Assembly: GCA_041667185.1 (NCBI GenBank)
Contig: JBAYFM010000007.1
Location: 4,296-68,295 of the forward strand
Direction of reading: 5' to 3'
DNA length: 64,000 nucleotides
DNA from: Patescibacteria group bacterium
GTDB lineage: Bacteria > Patescibacteriota > Patescibacteriia > SG8-24
Shown here: in pieces, positions 2,996 through 58,554 of the stretch
Position numbering within the stretch: the stretch's first letter is position 1
Layout: each line of letters opens with the position of its first letter
Translations under genes and position numbers: made by a program
Notes under the pieces: generated by a model
What the model was told of the DNA's origin: nothing
The model's database searches: none
What the model saw: the letters and a program-made list of their open reading frames with translations, nothing else

Positions 2996-3154
2996 TCTCG
3001 AACTTTCGAAGACGAGACACCAAGATCCCTGCTGCGCTTGCAGCGGGGGTCTTTTCATTTTCCGCGCCAGCCGAGGGAGGCCACATTGCCAAAACCCGCG
3101 GCCTAGGATTAACTGGGAGTGCTCTTTATAACCCCAGAACCCCGGAGGTCGGCC

Positions 3155-28394: not shown

Positions 28395-28500
28395 GGTCCT
28401 GCCGTACGGAGAGACGGAGAGACGAAGTCATGTCGCTTGCGAGCGACGTGGCCGGAGTCAGCGAAATATCAGCGGACTTTGTATCTTCGCTACTCCCTGA
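28395..28500. repeat. Composite repeat copy inside the sigma paralog 2 leader (core CATGTCGCTTGCGAGCGACGTGG at 28429-28451)
   Basis: GGAGAGACGGAGAGACGAAG + palindrome + GGAGTCAGCG...CTCCCTGACTTC; lies between conserved leader blocks GCGGTCCTGCC and GTAGGACC. Confidence 0.7.
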
Positions 28501-28548
28501 CTTCTCAACAATGTAGGACCTCGCCCTTTACAATCAGGAGAACACGCC

Positions 28549-29316
28549 ATGACCGATCATCAAGGATCGCCGATCTCTGAATCGCTGAGCAAATTATTGC
28601 GTCATTCCATGCTCGATCGGGAAGAGGAACTCCGACTCATCGGCCGGTCTCAGCAAGGCGACCGCCAGGCCCTCGACTCGCTCGTGCGCCACAATCTCAA
28701 GTTCGTGATGAGCATCGCCAAGCGCTATGCCGGCCGCGGCGTCGAACTCGAGGATCTGTTCAGCGAAGGCGCCATCGGCCTGCAGATAGCCATCAAGAAA
28801 TTCGACGTCACGAGCGGTAATCGGCTCAGCACCTACGCCATCTGGTGGATCCGGCAGCTGATCGCCCGCTACCTGGATGATCATTGCCGCACGATCCGCG
28901 TACCGATCAGAGTCCAAAAGAACCTGCGCGACGAGGAATCGGCAGAAGAAAACGACAACCGCCTCACCAAGGCCGGCCTCGACAACTTCTCGCCCGTCTC
29001 GCTCGACCAGGAACTGTCGTCCGGCGACGATTCCAACCAGAACGGATGCACGCTCGCCGATACCTGCGCGGACGAATGCAAAACAGCGTCGCCAGAAACA
29101 GCCGTCGCTCGCGCCGAGGTCTCGGACATCATCACTGAGGCGATCAGCCAGCTCACGCCCCGAGAACAATACGTCATCGTAAAACGTTTTCGCGAAGAGC
29201 TGACCCTGCGCAATATCGCCGGAACCCACACTCTGTCACGCGAGCGCATTCGCCAGATCGAAGCCAAGGCGCTCGGCAAACTCCGGCGTCTGCTCCAAAA
29301 CAAGGACATCTTCTGA
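28549..29316 (+). CDS. Sigma-70 family sigma factor, paralog 2 (255 aa)
   Basis: Collinear with paralog 1 (about 65% identical by eye); region 4.2 RIRQIEAKALGKLR. Confidence 0.85.
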   Translation: MTDHQGSPISESLSKLLRHSMLDREEELRLIGRSQQGDRQALDSLVRHNLKFVMSIAKRYAGRGVELEDLFSEGAIGLQIAIKKFDVTSGNRLSTYAIWWIRQLIARYLDDHCRTIRVPIRVQKNLRDEESAEENDNRLTKAGLDNFSPVSLDQELSSGDDSNQNGCTLADTCADECKTASPETAVARAEVSDIITEAISQLTPREQYVIVKRFREELTLRNIAGTHTLSRERIRQIEAKALGKLRRLLQNKDIF

Positions 29317-29410: not shown

Positions 29411-29439
29411 TTGACAAAAAACGTAAAATAAGCTATATT
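29411..29439 (+). promoter_or_regulatory. sigma70-type promoter TTGACA-N17-TATATT for paralog 3
   Basis: Hexamers and spacing read directly. Confidence 0.5.
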
Positions 29440-29491
29440 ATACGGTCCCGCCAGTAACGGGATGAAGCTCTTTTCCAACCAGGAGATCATC

Positions 29492-29824
29492 ATGTCCAAT
29501 CACGAACAAGAAATGCTTGAGGTTTCGTTCGACGACAACACCTACCAGCTCGAATGCGCGCTCGCCGATACCGGCGCGGACGAACGCTACGCCGCGTCGT
29601 CGCCCGAAACCGCCGTCGCCCGCTCTGAAGCTGAGGTCATCGTCACCAAGGCGCTCAACAGACTCACGCCTCGGGAACAGAGCATCATCGTCAAGCGCTT
29701 CTGGGGCGACCTGGACCAGCGCGAGATCTCCAAGATCTACGGCATGACGTACGCAAACATCGACAAGATCGAAGCCCAGGCGTTCGACAAACTCCGTCAG
29801 CATCTTTCGAGAGACCTCTTCTGA
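29492..29824 (+). CDS. Sigma-70 region-4-only paralog (110 aa): decayed third copy, pseudogene or sigma-region-4 mimic
   Basis: Retains only SPETAVARSE...LTPREQSIIVKRF...IDKIEAQAFDKLR (region 4); intact RBS AGGAG and same promoter/terminator design as paralogs 1-2. Confidence 0.55.
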   Translation: MSNHEQEMLEVSFDDNTYQLECALADTGADERYAASSPETAVARSEAEVIVTKALNRLTPREQSIIVKRFWGDLDQREISKIYGMTYANIDKIEAQAFDKLRQHLSRDLF

Positions 29825-29831
29825 GACCAAC

Positions 29832-29869
29832 GCGGTCGAGCCTAGCTCGGCCGCGTTTCATTTTATCTT
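29832..29869 (+). terminator. Terminator after sigma paralog 3
   Basis: GCGGTCGAGC-CTA-GCTCGGCCGC + GTTTCATTTT. Confidence 0.45.
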
Positions 29870-29872
29870 CGC

Positions 29873-29910
29873 CGCTCCGTCTCCCCAGGACTCCCCAACT
29901 CCCGCGCTTC
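29873..29910. repeat. Short inverted-orientation fragment of the repeat family (CTCCGTCTCCCCAGGACTCCCCAACTCCCGC)
   Basis: Reverse complement of GAGACGGAG / GAGTTGGGGAGTCC units, just upstream of trmD. Confidence 0.4.
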
Positions 29911-29929: not shown

Positions 29930-30625
29930 ATGCGCTTCGACCTTCTCACCATCTTCCCCTCGATGTTCGAGAGCTACTTCTCGGAGTCGATCATCAAACG
30001 CGCCGTCGAGCGCGGCCTTTTGGATATCCGGGCGCACGACCTGCGCCAGTGGTCCGAGGACAAACACCGCAAAGTCGACGACCGACCGTTCGGTGGCGGA
30101 CCAGGCATGGTCATGGCGGTCGGCCCTTTCTTCAAAGCGTTGAGGGCTTTAAGAGTTGGGAAGTCAGGGAGAGACGGAGATACGAAGAAACGGAACAAGA
30201 TGCGCGTCGTCCTGTTGTCCGCCAAGGGCAAAAAATTCACCCACAAAGAAGCCGTCCGGCTCGCCAAATACAAGCAGCTTATTCTGCTCTGCGGCCGCTA
30301 TGAAGGCGTGGACGAACGTGTCGCGTCCGAACTGGCCGACGAGGAAATTTCGATCGGTGACTACGTGCTCACCGGCGGCGAACTGCCAGCCATGGTCGTA
30401 GTCGACGCGGTAGCCCGCCAAGTCCCCGGCGTCTTGGGCAAAGCCGAATCCCTAGTGCAAGAATCCCACGCCGAAGAAGGCGTCACCGAATATCCGCAAT
30501 ACACCCGGCCGGAAATTTTCTCCCCGAAAAAAGGCGTGAACTGGAAAGTTCCCAAGATATTGCTCTCCGGCGACCATAAGAAGATCGCCGCGTGGCGTAC
30601 CGCGAAAAGCCGCGCCAAAAAATGA
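29930..30625 (+). CDS. trmD: tRNA (guanine37-N1)-methyltransferase TrmD
   Basis: MRFDLLTIFPSMF..., DDRPFGGGPGMVM, LILLCGRYEGVDERV, DYVLTGGELPAMVVVDAV all match TrmD. Confidence 0.9.
   Translation: MRFDLLTIFPSMFESYFSESIIKRAVERGLLDIRAHDLRQWSEDKHRKVDDRPFGGGPGMVMAVGPFFKALRALRVGKSGRDGDTKKRNKMRVVLLSAKGKKFTHKEAVRLAKYKQLILLCGRYEGVDERVASELADEEISIGDYVLTGGELPAMVVVDAVARQVPGVLGKAESLVQESHAEEGVTEYPQYTRPEIFSPKKGVNWKVPKILLSGDHKKIAAWRTAKSRAKK
30153..30187. repeat. Repeat-family fragment (GAGTTGGGAAGTCAGGGAGAGACGGAGATACGAAG) in-frame inside trmD
   Basis: 20/20 nt match to AGGGAGAGACGGAGATACGG of the 54212-54240 copy; encodes about 10 extra residues (RVGKSGRDGDT) in the TrmD inter-domain linker relative to E. 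coli TrmD. Confidence 0.5.
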
Positions 30626-34407: not shown

Positions 34408-34509
34408 CTCCGCCACGTCGCTCGCAAACGAAGTGACGGAGTCAGGGAGATACGGAGACGGAGTTTGGGAGAGTGCAGGAGTGGAGGAGTCGGGGAGACC
34501 CGACGCAAA
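34408..34509. repeat. Composite repeat copy (degenerate core CCACGTCGCTCGCAAACGAAGTGACGG; GACGGAG, GAGTGCAGGAGTGGAGGAG, GGGGAGACCCGAC blocks)
   Basis: Shares blocks with the 1863-2045 copy. Confidence 0.7.
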
Positions 34510-34589
34510 CTCCCGCACTTCAGCACTCCCGCACTTCAGCACTCCCGCACTTCAGCACTCCCGCACTTCAGCACTCCCGCACTTCCGCC
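34510..34589. repeat. Minisatellite: 16-bp unit CTCCCGCACTTCAGCA x5
   Basis: Five perfect tandem units read directly, about 60 bp upstream of the 16S P1 promoter. Confidence 0.9.
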
Positions 34590-34948: not shown

Positions 34949-36456
<1,508 letters not shown>

Positions 36457-38603: not shown

Positions 38604-38680
38604 GGGCGTATAGCTCAGTTGGTTAGAGCGTCACACTGATAATGTGAAGGTCGATGGTTCGAATCCATCTACGCCCACCA
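38604..38680 (+). tRNA. tRNA-Ile (anticodon GAT), CCA encoded
   Basis: GGGCGTATAGCTCAGTTGGTTAGAGCG...CTGATAA anticodon loop...GGTTCGAATCC T-arm...TACGCCCACCA. Confidence 0.9.
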
Positions 38681-38798
38681 GAGAGATTAAAATGTTTGCC
38701 GATTATTGCGAGGCAAGCGCGGAAACCGCAGGTTGGCAAGCCGCCTGTTCAAAGGCTTACGCGACCATAATTTCTCGAGAGCGTGTCGGTCCAAAATT

Positions 38799-39332
38799 AT
38801 GCCCATCACTGAACTGGACGTTGTGATTCGTCTGGTCGTCATCACGGCCATTTCCGGATTCATCGGCCTGGAACGCGAGTATCACGCCAAGCCGGCCGGA
38901 CTCCGCACCAACATCATGGTGGGTCTTGGTTCGACCGTCATGACAATTGCCGGCCTCAGAGCCGTTGATCTGTTCGTCAACGCTCCCGTCGACCCGACCC
39001 GTATCGCCGGCCAGGTCATCACTGGCATCGGCTTCATCGGCGCTGGAGCGATCCTCCGACCGTCCGGCCGCGGTGTCAGCAATGTCGTCGGCCTCACGAC
39101 CGCCGCGACCTTGTGGGTGGTGAGTGGACTAGGCATTGCTGTGGGTATGGGTCTGTATTTAGAAGCCCTGCTCGCAACCCTCCTGGTTTTCTTCACTTTC
39201 TTCGTCCTGGGCAGAATGGTCACTTACATCCGCCGGCATTCCAAGAACTACCCGACGGACATCAAGGCTCACGAAGAGGCGGATGAAAAGACGAACCATG
39301 ACAATGAGGATCCATCAGGACGGGAATCATGA
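38799..39332 (+). CDS. mgtC: MgtC/SapB family membrane protein
   Basis: MPITELDVVIRLVVITAISGFIGLEREYHAKPAGLRTNIMVGLGSTVMT matches the MgtC N-terminal domain; listed longer ORF start is non-coding. Confidence 0.75.
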   Translation: MPITELDVVIRLVVITAISGFIGLEREYHAKPAGLRTNIMVGLGSTVMTIAGLRAVDLFVNAPVDPTRIAGQVITGIGFIGAGAILRPSGRGVSNVVGLTTAATLWVVSGLGIAVGMGLYLEALLATLLVFFTFFVLGRMVTYIRRHSKNYPTDIKAHEEADEKTNHDNEDPSGRES

Positions 39333-39362
39333 GACAGCGGAAGTAAATCGGTTTTCCGTGAC

Positions 39363-39437
39363 GCCGAGGTAGCTCAGTGGTAGAGCAGAGGACTGAAAAT
39401 CCTCGTGTCGCCAGTTCAATCCTGGCCCTCGGCACCA
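39363..39437 (+). tRNA. tRNA-Phe (anticodon GAA), CCA encoded
   Basis: GCCGAGGTAGCTCAGTGGTAGAGC...CTGAAAA loop...GTTCAATCC...CCTCGGCACCA. Confidence 0.9.
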
Positions 39438-39470
39438 CGGAAAGCCGATTTTTTGATAAGATGACGTCAT

Positions 39471-39546
39471 CGGGGCGTGGCCTAATGGCTAAGGCACTTG
39501 CTTTGGGAGCAAGGGATTGAGAGTTCGAGTCTCTCCGCCCCGACCA
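39471..39546 (+). tRNA. tRNA-Pro (anticodon TGG), CCA encoded
   Basis: CGGGGCG acceptor, anticodon stem CTTGC/GCAAG with loop TTTGGGA, T-arm GTTCGAGTC, 3' CGCCCCGACCA. Confidence 0.85.
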
Positions 39547-39573
39547 AATTTCATATGAATATCGGTTTCATCT

Positions 39574-39649
<76 letters not shown>

Positions 39650-43522: not shown

Positions 43523-44245
43523 TCAGATGTCGACGTTATAATAGATATTGTTCACGTCCTCGTCGTCGTCCAAAGCTTCGAACAAGCCTTCCAGTTTGGC
43601 TTGCGCTTCGGGATCAGCCACAGCCAGCATCTCTTTGGGCAGCCATTCCAGGCCGGCGCCGACGACCTTCAGTCCGAGTTTGTCCGCCGCCTCGCGCAAT
43701 CCATTCAAAGCCTCGACCGGACCAGTGACGTCGAGCCCCTCGGCGTCGGCCGCGATATCCTCGGCTCCGGCGTCGATGAGCGCCAGCTCCTCGGCTTCGC
43801 CGAGCGGCTGAGCGCGCTCGATCCGCAAAACACTTTTCCGCACGAACATCCACAGCACCGATCCGGCGCTGCCGAGATTGCCGCCGTGGACCGACAGGAT
43901 ATGTTTGATGTTGGAGCTGGTGCGATTCCGGTTGCTGGTCAGAGCCTCGACCACGACCGCCGCGCCGCCCGGACCATAGCCTTCATAGGTGACCTCTTCG
44001 ATATTCTCGCCCTCCGCGCCGCCGCTGCCGCGCTTGATGGCCCGTTCGATATTGTCTTTGGGCATGCTGCCGGCCTGCGCCAGTTCGATGGCGGTCCGCA
44101 GTTTGAAATTGAAATTCGGATCGCTCCCGCCCTCGCGGGCCGCGACCGTGATGACACGGGCGAGCTTGGTGAAAACCGCGGCCCGTTTGGAATCAGTGGT
44201 GCCTTTCTGATGTTTGACCTTGGCCCATTTGGAATGTTTGGACAT
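43523..44245 (-). CDS. yebC: YebC/PmpR family DNA-binding transcriptional regulator
   Basis: MSKHSKWAKVKHQKG...KLARVITVAAREGGSDPNFNFKLRTAIE matches YebC; conserved yebC-ruvC pairing. Confidence 0.85.
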   Translation of the reverse strand: MSKHSKWAKVKHQKGTTDSKRAAVFTKLARVITVAAREGGSDPNFNFKLRTAIELAQAGSMPKDNIERAIKRGSGGAEGENIEEVTYEGYGPGGAAVVVEALTSNRNRTSSNIKHILSVHGGNLGSAGSVLWMFVRKSVLRIERAQPLGEAEELALIDAGAEDIAADAEGLDVTGPVEALNGLREAADKLGLKVVGAGLEWLPKEMLAVADPEAQAKLEGLFEALDDDEDVNNIYYNVDI

Positions 44246-44261
44246 ATGAGAAGTTGGGGAG

Positions 44262-44440
44262 TTGGGAAGTGCTGGAGTGCGGGAGTCCTGAAGATTTGAA
44301 ATCAAGCTTCAGCACTCCAGTACTTCAAAACTTCTGCACTTCAGAAAAAGTTGAGGAGTTGGGAAGTGCGGGAGTGCTGGAGTGACGAAGACATCTTGTC
44401 TACCCAACTCCCTCACTTCCGCACTCTCCAACTCCTAAAG
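44262..44440. repeat. Two adjacent imperfect hairpin repeats built from GAGTTGGGAAGTGC(G/T)GGAGTG units
   Basis: GAAGTGCTGGAGTG...CACTCCAGTACTTC and GAGTTGGGAAGTGCGGGAGTG...CACTTCCGCACTCTCCAACTC inverted repeats. Confidence 0.6.
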
Positions 44441-54211: not shown

Positions 54212-54325
54212 TAAGGGAGAGACGGAGATACGGAGAGACGGAGTCACGTCGTTCGCGAGCGACGTGATGTGACGTGATCAAGGAATGATGAAGCACTCCA
54301 GCACTCCAGCACTACCCTTTTAACA
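54212..54325. repeat. Composite repeat copy (GGGAGAGACGGAGATACGGAGAGACGGAG + core CACGTCGTTCGCGAGCGACGTG at 54245-54266 + CACTCCAG x2)
   Basis: Full-length member: GACGGAG units, palindrome, then CACTCCAG octamers. Confidence 0.8.
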
Positions 54326-58330: not shown

Positions 58331-58525
58331 ATGGGCAAATATTTATTTTTTATGGTCGCTGACGGCTATTGGCCATTAGCTATCAACCAATTATCCACAC
58401 CCTCCCCCTTGCCTACCGAACAAAAACCGAACATAATTAGATTAGGTGCTAGTTGCTAGGTTTTAGGGGAGCGAACCAGCTCCCTCAACCTAGAACCTAC
58501 AAACTAAAACCTACAACCTAAAAAC

Positions 58526-58554
58526 TTGACTCATTCCGTGTTAATATCTATCTT
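58526..58554 (+). promoter_or_regulatory. Candidate recA promoter TTGACT-N17-TATCTT overlapped by AACCTACAA direct repeats
   Basis: Hexamers about 55 nt upstream of the recA ATG; tandem repeats ACCTAGAACCTACAAACTAAAACCTACAACCTAAAAAC abut the -35. Confidence 0.35.

Follow-up and report, generated by a model that had tools for sequence, protein, structure and literature searches.

Heptamer and octamer repeats in general are common in bacteria and poorly understood. Rickettsia palindromic elements sit in-frame in conserved genes, and the peptide they add is reported to be compatible with fold and function (PMC10969869). One Geobacter family, made of four-heptamer arrays (GGGACCG), occurs inside genes as well as between them (PMC2700814). 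Here we use sequence comparison and structure prediction to study a repeat of this kind in a stretch of 64,000 nucleotides from a Patescibacteria group bacterium (contig JBAYFM010000007.1; "the window" below always means this whole stretch), where trmD, the essential gene of a deeply knotted tRNA methyltransferase, carries 33 nucleotides of a G-rich octamer repeat in its reading frame. We think it fairly probable that this insert, copied from another member of the family, is passenger repeat DNA which a permissive loop of the enzyme tolerates. In the literature, of which our coverage is incomplete, we find no account of repeat families from Patescibacteria or the candidate phyla radiation and, among the papers listed, none of repeat-built TrmD loops. 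Three findings are new here: an inverted copy in the trmD leader, long loops in close relatives made of tandem-repeat or palindromic DNA, and enrichment of period-7/8 repeats in the loop across 92 loci. The features on which the comparison rests are listed below (ORF, open reading frame; pLDDT, predicted local distance difference test).

29930..30625, plus strand: trmD coding sequence, 231 residues (ORF list; Pfam PF01746; TrmD chains in the PDB; Foldseek).
30155..30187, plus strand: the 33-nt in-frame insert, codons 76-86, peptide VGKSGRDGDTK (DNA alignments with relatives; exact matches to other copies; pLDDT <50).
30152..30199, plus strand: the full period-8 stretch with GGAG/GAAG anchors, 6 units in constant phase (array scan).
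54214..54264, plus strand: the best-matching intergenic copy, GGAGAGAC GGAGATAC GGAGAGAC GGAGTCA followed by an 18-nt palindrome CGTCGTTCGCGAGCGACG, showing the architecture of the complete element.
28475..28514, minus strand: a copy of the same subtype (GTTGAGAAGTCAGGGAGTAGCGAAGATACAAAG) upstream of a sigma-factor gene, and the insert's strongest predicted pairing partner (-49.2 kcal/mol).
44250..44394, plus strand: two intergenic arrays with exact GAGTTGGGAAGT, directly upstream of the minus-strand yebC start at 44245 (YebC Pfam match).

The insert forms the core of a period-8 array of about four units, AGAGTTGG GAAGTCAG GGAGAGAC GGAGATAC GAAGAAAC, and its likeness to intergenic copies goes beyond the periodic anchors. 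The word AGGGAGAGACGGAGATACG (30166-30184) is identical to 54214-54232 at 19/19 positions and has seven sites with at most three mismatches where shuffles lead us to expect 0.01. Similarly, GAGTTGGGAAGT is found exactly (12/12) at 44259-44270 and at 44356-44367, with six sites at one mismatch or fewer against an expectation of 0.27. The right end of the full stretch, GGAGATACGAAGAAACGGA, equals positions 11-31 of an intergenic arm (AGATACGGAGATACGAAGAAACGGAG) of a relative, L002, over 21/21 positions. A 48-nt query around the insert recovers at least ten other repeat copies at 29-33 of 48 positions, while shuffled queries reach a maximum of 28, and the order of units in the insert is the same as in the copies at 28475-28514 and 29866-29901. 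We are highly confident that the insert derives from the intergenic GGAGnnnn repeat family.

These results bear on a sequence-only reading of the window, which had placed a 35-mer of the family inside the trmD frame at 30153-30187 and taken it to be retained in-frame. Position, ORF and the intact frame agree with this, and the exact 19-mer and 12-mer copies, with shuffle expectations of 0.01 and 0.27, secure the family assignment. The concern that the match might be too short to exceed random expectation does not apply (seven sites against 0.01). The partner copies named there are real, but their coordinates were off by 7-14 nt: 54221-54240 should be 54214-54232, the 20th base being different, and 44370 should be 44259 and 44356. 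Could the resemblance nevertheless be fortuitous, arising in a purine-rich loop that codes for Lys, Arg and Gly, or be the product of a chimeric assembly? The loop flanks do use AAG, AGA and GGA codons that resemble GGAG/GAAG units, and the relative P0026 encodes LRVGKS with unrelated codons. Chance would not readily give seven sites for 0.01 expected, nor a continuous octamer phase. As for an artefact, NCBI, JGI and ENA records contain the identical TrmD protein on 2 contigs, its frame is intact, and independent assemblies (L002, L090) carry arrays in the same loop. We give chance or misassembly hardly any credence.

The family itself is dense in the window, with 17 arrays of at least four units compared to 0 after shuffling, and Tandem Repeats Finder (TRF) independently lists many period-8 rows. 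By comparison, five such arrays, four of them in L002, occur in roughly 620 kb of TrmD loci, most of which are distant. A complete element consists of a tandem array of GGAGnnnn octamers, an 18-nt palindrome and a complementary nnnnCTCC array. The palindrome, CGTCGTTCGCGARCGACG, has seven sites (1422, 1914, 5862, 8064, 28431, 34416 and 54247) where 0.44 are expected; it adjoins a GGAGAGAC-type array at most of them and looks like the central part of a complete intergenic element. Between genes, the G-rich arms lie on the sense strand just after stop codons or antisense just before start codons. The trmD arm is the only one of 21 arms inside a supported gene, although about 81% of the window is coding (P=6e-14; doubtful ORFs in this count were checked by Pfam, with VanW at 1-1374 and YebC at 43526-44245).

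The trmD copy is a fragment of a repeat element, not a whole one. What it has in common with the family is a run of at least four tandem anchored 8-nt units and identity beyond the anchors; what it lacks is an intergenic site with a local complementary arm and/or the 18-nt palindrome. No palindrome core is present in the trmD copy, and the sole nearby complementary arm lies 251 nt upstream in reverse order (C-arm, then G-arm). The insert has no self-structure (-1.9 kcal/mol, z=+0.24), and its junctions show no in-register direct repeat, with AAGA at both ends standing 34 nt apart instead of 33. We reject a miniature inverted-repeat transposable element, since the insert has neither self-complementarity nor a target-site duplication, and we reject a CRISPR or TIGR array because the period is 8 nt and spacers are absent. 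Rfam, at its gathering threshold, finds the 16S rRNA and four tRNAs only and leaves the repeats without a match. When GVRECGSA x5, which (GGAGTGCG)n encodes whichever frame is read, is searched against 5.8 billion proteins, the only matches are hypothetical ORFs of 28-69 aa with no Pfam domains, apparently miscalled over intergenic arrays; this search, insensitive as it is to 10-aa arrays, gives no evidence of long in-frame arrays in real proteins.

Other repeats are visible in the window. At 58443-58526, inverted period-7 arrays, (TAGGTNN)x4 and (NAACCTA)x5, stand around a short GC hairpin and form a heptamer counterpart of the octamer family. In the rRNA leader at 34430-34585, upstream of the 16S gene (34950-36455), there are large arrays including a perfect (ACTCCCGCACTTCAGC)x4.8; the 16S rRNA 3' end reads CACCTCCTTTCT, and a cluster of four tRNA genes follows downstream at 38604-39646.

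The host gene is identified as trmD by several comparisons. In a profile search the protein matches Pfam PF01746 at E=1.7e-55 over residues 23-228, solved TrmD chains in the PDB match it at E~1e-56, and Foldseek of its AlphaFold model (built on an alignment of 40 relatives) against TrmD structures gives E~1e-21 and a template modelling (TM) score of 0.60. An identical protein is annotated as TrmD in a Patescibacteria metagenome-assembled genome (MAG; accession MFA6603849.1). Catalytic and substrate-binding features described for the enzyme are Arg154, Asp169, the SPQG cover loop and SGxH (PMC5372744); in the window protein GGGPGM, an SAKG cover loop, CGRYEG and SGDH are intact, and R163 is also present. 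The SAKG that replaces SPQG (residues 97-100) is invariant in the 40-sequence alignment of relatives, as is Glu178, which aligns with the catalytic Asp (169 in H. influenzae, 174 in P. aeruginosa), and the C-terminus of the window TrmD and of 39 aligned relatives ends about 30 residues before that of the P. aeruginosa enzyme. An internal start at Met91 was considered and rejected: the nearest GGAG is 19 nt upstream, and the product would lose 90 N-terminal residues.

Where in the protein does the insert fall? From GGGPGM to CGRYEG the window enzyme has 60 residues, compared to a mode of 51 and a range of 49-88 in 113 relatives. The sequence-only reading had called this segment about ten residues longer than in E. 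coli TrmD; it is indeed longer, with an excess of +9 over the mode, to which we take the E. coli count to be equal (51), and of +11 over the nearest relatives (49). The location given there, the inter-domain linker, has to be abandoned: in an alignment with P. aeruginosa TrmD the gap for the insert falls between residues 83 and 84, inside the N-terminal SPOUT domain, which spans 5-165 and is followed by the linker at 166-177 (PMC6795141). The AlphaFold model has the insert between helix 64-73 and the strand that begins at residue 91, with pLDDT <50 at residues 77-87, and thus predicts a floppy surface loop leading from helix to strand. Judging from general alpha/beta fold geometry, this loop would be on the sheet edge opposite the S-adenosylmethionine (AdoMet)/knot pocket. 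The named contacts to tRNA and AdoMet are Arg52, Tyr54, Arg154, Asp169, Arg183, the SPQG cover loop and SGxH, and none of the tRNA-contact or catalytic residues named in that study is within the insert loop (PMC5372744). Because these residues lie outside the loop, TrmD would be expected to work normally, with the insert as a passenger in the manner of Rickettsia palindromic elements.

The insert is specific to its lineage. In the DNA alignment the closest relative, L001/P0002, has a clean 33-nt gap at the insert and is 92% identical outside the loop; three more members of the P0002 cluster (P0146-P0148) and P0004 also lack the 11-residue segment, and the cluster shows no loop length polymorphism. 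All four of the nearest relatives, at 87-90% identity, are without the 11 residues, which bears out the proposal of a lineage-specific insertion. DNA identity to L001 is 85-87% and to L002 82-83%, values too close to decide between a shared and a parallel gain. Recombination that left a trmD 5' half in common with L002 is rejected, since relatives rank alike in similarity whether the 5' or the 3' part is compared. A scan of metagenome contigs with the loop segment gave one locus and was dominated by chance matches to degenerate patterns.

Now we consider the same loop in other bacteria, for which the GGGPGM-CGRYEG segment was mapped in 93 loci by tblastn and TRF was run on all; the broad control set comprises 80 loci with TrmD relatives at <=60% identity, among the matches listed. 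Seven lengthened loops were examined in close relatives, and all seven consist of tandem-repeat or palindromic DNA. In L002/P0003 the loop holds, in register with the window insert, a GGAG octamer array of other units (AGTGCTGA AGATGGGG AGTGCTGG AGTACTGA), in L090/P0098 a perfect (AGTGCGGG)x4.4, in L091 (GCGGGGC)x3.3 and in L092 (AAGCGGG)x3.9, while the trmD loops of L084:4001-4744 (P0029) and L085:467-1180 (P0011) contain GC-rich palindromic inserts of 96 nt (folding z=-4.4) and 45 nt (z=-3.6). The baseline-length loops of L001, L083, L087, L088 and L089 have none of these repeats. Across the 92 loci other than the window, 13 of the 76 period-7/8 repeats fall in the segment, which makes up 2.2% of bases, compared to 1.7 expected (8-fold, P=1.3e-8); none of the 76 lies elsewhere in trmD. 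Most of the arrays, whose units are specific to a lineage, run to about four copies (GAATCAG x4.6, AAGACGC x4.7, GCAAAGC x4.1, AATTTTC x4.4), their carriers being mostly candidate-phyla-radiation MAGs plus two Omnitrophota. The gene is in-frame across the loop in 93/93 cases. Arrays are also present in other genes: in one locus of L023 (Omnitrophica WOR_2) two tRNA-modification genes have perfect in-frame heptamer arrays, tgt at 3120-3147 ((GTCACAG)x4.0) and trmD in its loop ((AAGACGC)x4.7), further in-frame heptamer arrays lie in smc (L038), a Mur ligase gene (L005) and lgt (L008), and L036 has two at the N-terminus of a TPR protein. Because tgt, smc, the Mur ligase gene and lgt carry arrays too, the TrmD loop is a favoured but not the sole array site.

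This recurrence raises the question of whether the window insert was copied at all. In a local origin, the loop would be a mutational hot spot in which arrays of 7-8 nt arise by slippage or iterative templated synthesis, and family likeness would follow from a genome-wide process and later gene conversion. Unrelated, lineage-specific and often perfect units in the same loop (L090, L091, L092, L011, L023, L057, L042 and others) are what such an origin would give, among all tandem repeats in these loci a period of 7 is the most frequent (56/161), and a strict scan of L090, L091 and L092 shows the trmD array to be the only period-7/8 repeat of at least 3 copies in 7-14 kb. The window array looks different: its units are imperfect and differ at 4/8 positions, yet exact stretches of 19 and 21 nt are common to distant copies, and a unit order found in two other copies is predicted by copying and not by fresh slippage. 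Steps of 7 or 8 nt would, moreover, pass through frameshifted and presumably lethal intermediates in an essential gene. On balance we regard a local origin as unlikely, though it deserves to be kept in mind. A broader form of the idea, to which we assign a slim chance, is that candidate-phyla-radiation bacteria and Omnitrophota share a conserved hot spot in the helix-to-strand loop of TrmD, where arrays of about four 7-8-nt units are continually created in-frame. If true, the window insert would be one instance, and either a dedicated mechanism that adds several units per step or a selected mRNA or DNA role of the array would be implied, such as a G-rich/anti-Shine-Dalgarno pause site before the knot-forming segment or frameshift-sensitive control of an enzyme that suppresses +1 frameshifting.

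A second arm of the repeat lies in the trmD leader, beside a hairpin:

29866..29901, minus strand: inverted copy of the insert's subtype in the trmD leader, G-rich on the minus strand; its end is separated from the start codon by 29 nt, and the arm from the insert by 251 nt.
29829..29857, plus strand: terminator-like hairpin, a 13-pair stem then TCATTTTATC, after the sigma-fragment ORF and immediately before the leader arm (promoter/terminator scan).

An inverted-repeat search aligns 29866-29901 with 30153-30188 over 36 nt at 81% complementarity, and the predicted minimum-energy and centroid RNA structures both pair the two arms (z=-3.05). Such a pair could have a function of its own in the nucleic acid, either as a long-range RNA stem around the trmD start that affects translation or stability, or as paired protein sites that loop DNA in the way of internal operators. 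Consistent with this, L002 has leader arrays and an in-gene array while L001 has neither, a promoter-like site at 29411-29439 could drive a read-through transcript, and paired sets of 4 tandem octamers in Geobacter metallireducens have been interpreted as regulator sites (PMC2700814). The quantitative comparison points the other way. The duplex of leader arm and insert, at -43.0 kcal/mol, ranks only 34 of 132 G-arm/C-arm combinations in the window, and the insert pairs better with the 28475 arm (-49.2 kcal/mol); the equivalent pairing in L002 reaches 70% over 20 nt with a fold z=+1.05. In addition, the in-gene arrays of L090, L091 and L092 have no complementary leader arm, L089 has a leader array and no in-gene one, and the terminator-like hairpin precedes the leader arm. 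Because the duplex rank is unexceptional, the L002 pairing weak and several relatives have one arm only, the complementarity is a general property of the family. Specific co-evolution of leader arm and insert is rejected on the first two of these grounds; regulatory pairing between them is unsupported, and we consider a paired function distinctly unlikely.

The surroundings of the leader are as follows. The scan finds no promoter-like site between the leader arm and trmD. Between the full sigma-factor gene (28549-29316) and trmD lies a plus-strand ORF of 120 aa (29462-29824) with sigma-70 region 4 only, a partial paralogue of the sigma gene, preceded by the strong promoter-like site at 29411-29439 (TTGACA, 17-nt spacer, TATATT, 11/12). 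In L001, L087 and L088 the sigma gene directly adjoins trmD with no sigma fragment between. Directly upstream of trmD, L089:1-84 is a period-8 array of CCACTCAA-type units and L084:3880-4000 has AGAGTGTA-type hairpin arms of period 8. The L089 leader array abuts a CTTCATGTTAAC motif. This motif is seen again shortly before the start of trmD, both in the window and, in the form CTTCGTGTTAAC, in L001.

Selection for a longer loop has also to be weighed. A basic loop could aid tRNA binding in these short TrmDs, or G-rich mRNA, Shine-Dalgarno-like or in the form of a G-quadruplex, could delay ribosomes ahead of the segment that forms the knot. Lys and Arg abound in many of the clade's long loops, but the net charge of the window peptide is only +1, and across the clade loop sequence and length are unconstrained, short loops being the mode. 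At the RNA level, the 16S rRNA 3' end CACCUCCUUUCU means that GGAG units complement the anti-Shine-Dalgarno sequence, the sense strand is the G-rich one in all five close-clade arrays, and the L090 and L091 arrays, with four tracts of G3+ each, are canonical quadruplex motifs on that strand. The window array has no four G3 tracts: by inspection its G-tracts are GGG, GGG and GG, with no comparable fourth nearby. The units of AT-rich lineages (AATTTTC, AATACTA), in turn, are neither G-rich nor Shine-Dalgarno-like. We judge a selected expansion to be very improbable.

We therefore return to passenger DNA copied from elsewhere in the family. In the proposed mechanism, one G-rich array arm of about four units entered trmD as a copy, with recombination or templated repair against another family member as the probable route, and the purine-rich Lys/Arg/Gly codons of the loop may have helped the copying, a step that we infer from the shared sequence. 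The copy would then have survived for three reasons: its net 33 nt keep the reading frame, its G-rich strand encodes a hydrophilic and flexible peptide (VGKSGRDGDTK), and its site is the helix-to-strand loop of the N-terminal SPOUT domain. The TrmD loop would on this account be a recurrent sink for repeat DNA.

Several observations count against this account. We find no donor copy, target-site duplication or junction signature that would mark an insertion mechanism, and the neutrality of the insert is likewise deduced. The inserts of the window and L002 share a register, although relatives closer to each of the two have no insert, so that one has to accept either parallel gains at one spot or repeated loss of an ancestral insert. 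The lone arrays of L090-L092 are more in keeping with a process tied to the site than with random capture out of a dense family, and the G-richness of the close-clade arrays on the sense strand could come from selection at the level of RNA rather than protein.

The locus is a case in which intergenic repeat DNA has directly reshaped an enzyme that is both essential and deeply knotted, in a Patescibacteria lineage with reduced genomes, and "selfish DNA in coding genes", known from Rickettsia, extends to a new phylum and to short-period G-rich arrays. The wider pattern of arrays, in the TrmD loop and in other genes, is also a natural experiment: in an essential gene only net changes divisible by three survive, and therefore the surviving arrays constrain the number of units added per mutational event. 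For annotation, it is important to note that length variation of the TrmD loop should not be taken as functional divergence, and that a G-rich repeat is a potential source of assembly and frameshift errors in MAGs.

How does this locus compare with the systems named at the outset? The Rickettsia palindromic element is its closest functional analogy, as in both cases a dispersed non-coding repeat sits in-frame in a conserved housekeeping gene at a structurally permissive site. The insert is nevertheless not a complete palindromic element: Rickettsia elements are complete, about 150 bp long, encode a conserved peptide and have hit dozens of genes, whereas the window insert is a 33-nt single arm with no self-structure, made of 8-nt tandem units, in one gene in 64 kb. 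The 96-nt and 45-nt inserts of L084 and L085 resemble Rickettsia-type elements more than the window insert does. Contingency loci share with it a non-triplet tandem repeat in a reading frame, where a change of one unit would shift the frame, but the window array has few units and these are imperfect, trmD is an essential housekeeping gene that is in-frame in 93/93 cases, and no copy-number polymorphism occurs among the sequences compared.

At the level of the repeat family, the nearest likenesses are the G-rich heptamer repeats (GGGNATC) of Xanthomonas and Nostoc and the cyanobacterial heptanucleotide repeats, which, like the window family, have short non-triplet units with about four copies preferred (PMC4692102). 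The Xanthomonas/Nostoc repeats and the window family are both over-represented between genes and under-represented in coding regions, and both sometimes form inverted pairs (PMC4692102). The placement rule of the former, with the G-rich strand antisense before ORFs and sense after stops, is followed by the intergenic arms of the window (PMC4692102). They differ in that the window unit is an octamer in which GGAG is constant and the other four nt vary, and in that its arrays flank an 18-nt palindrome. The elements of Geobacter metallireducens come in sets of four tandem octamers and in opposite-strand pairs at variable distance, as in the window (PMC2700814); their unit sequences and phylum are different, and they have been interpreted, without experimental test, as regulator-binding or RNA elements (PMC2700814).

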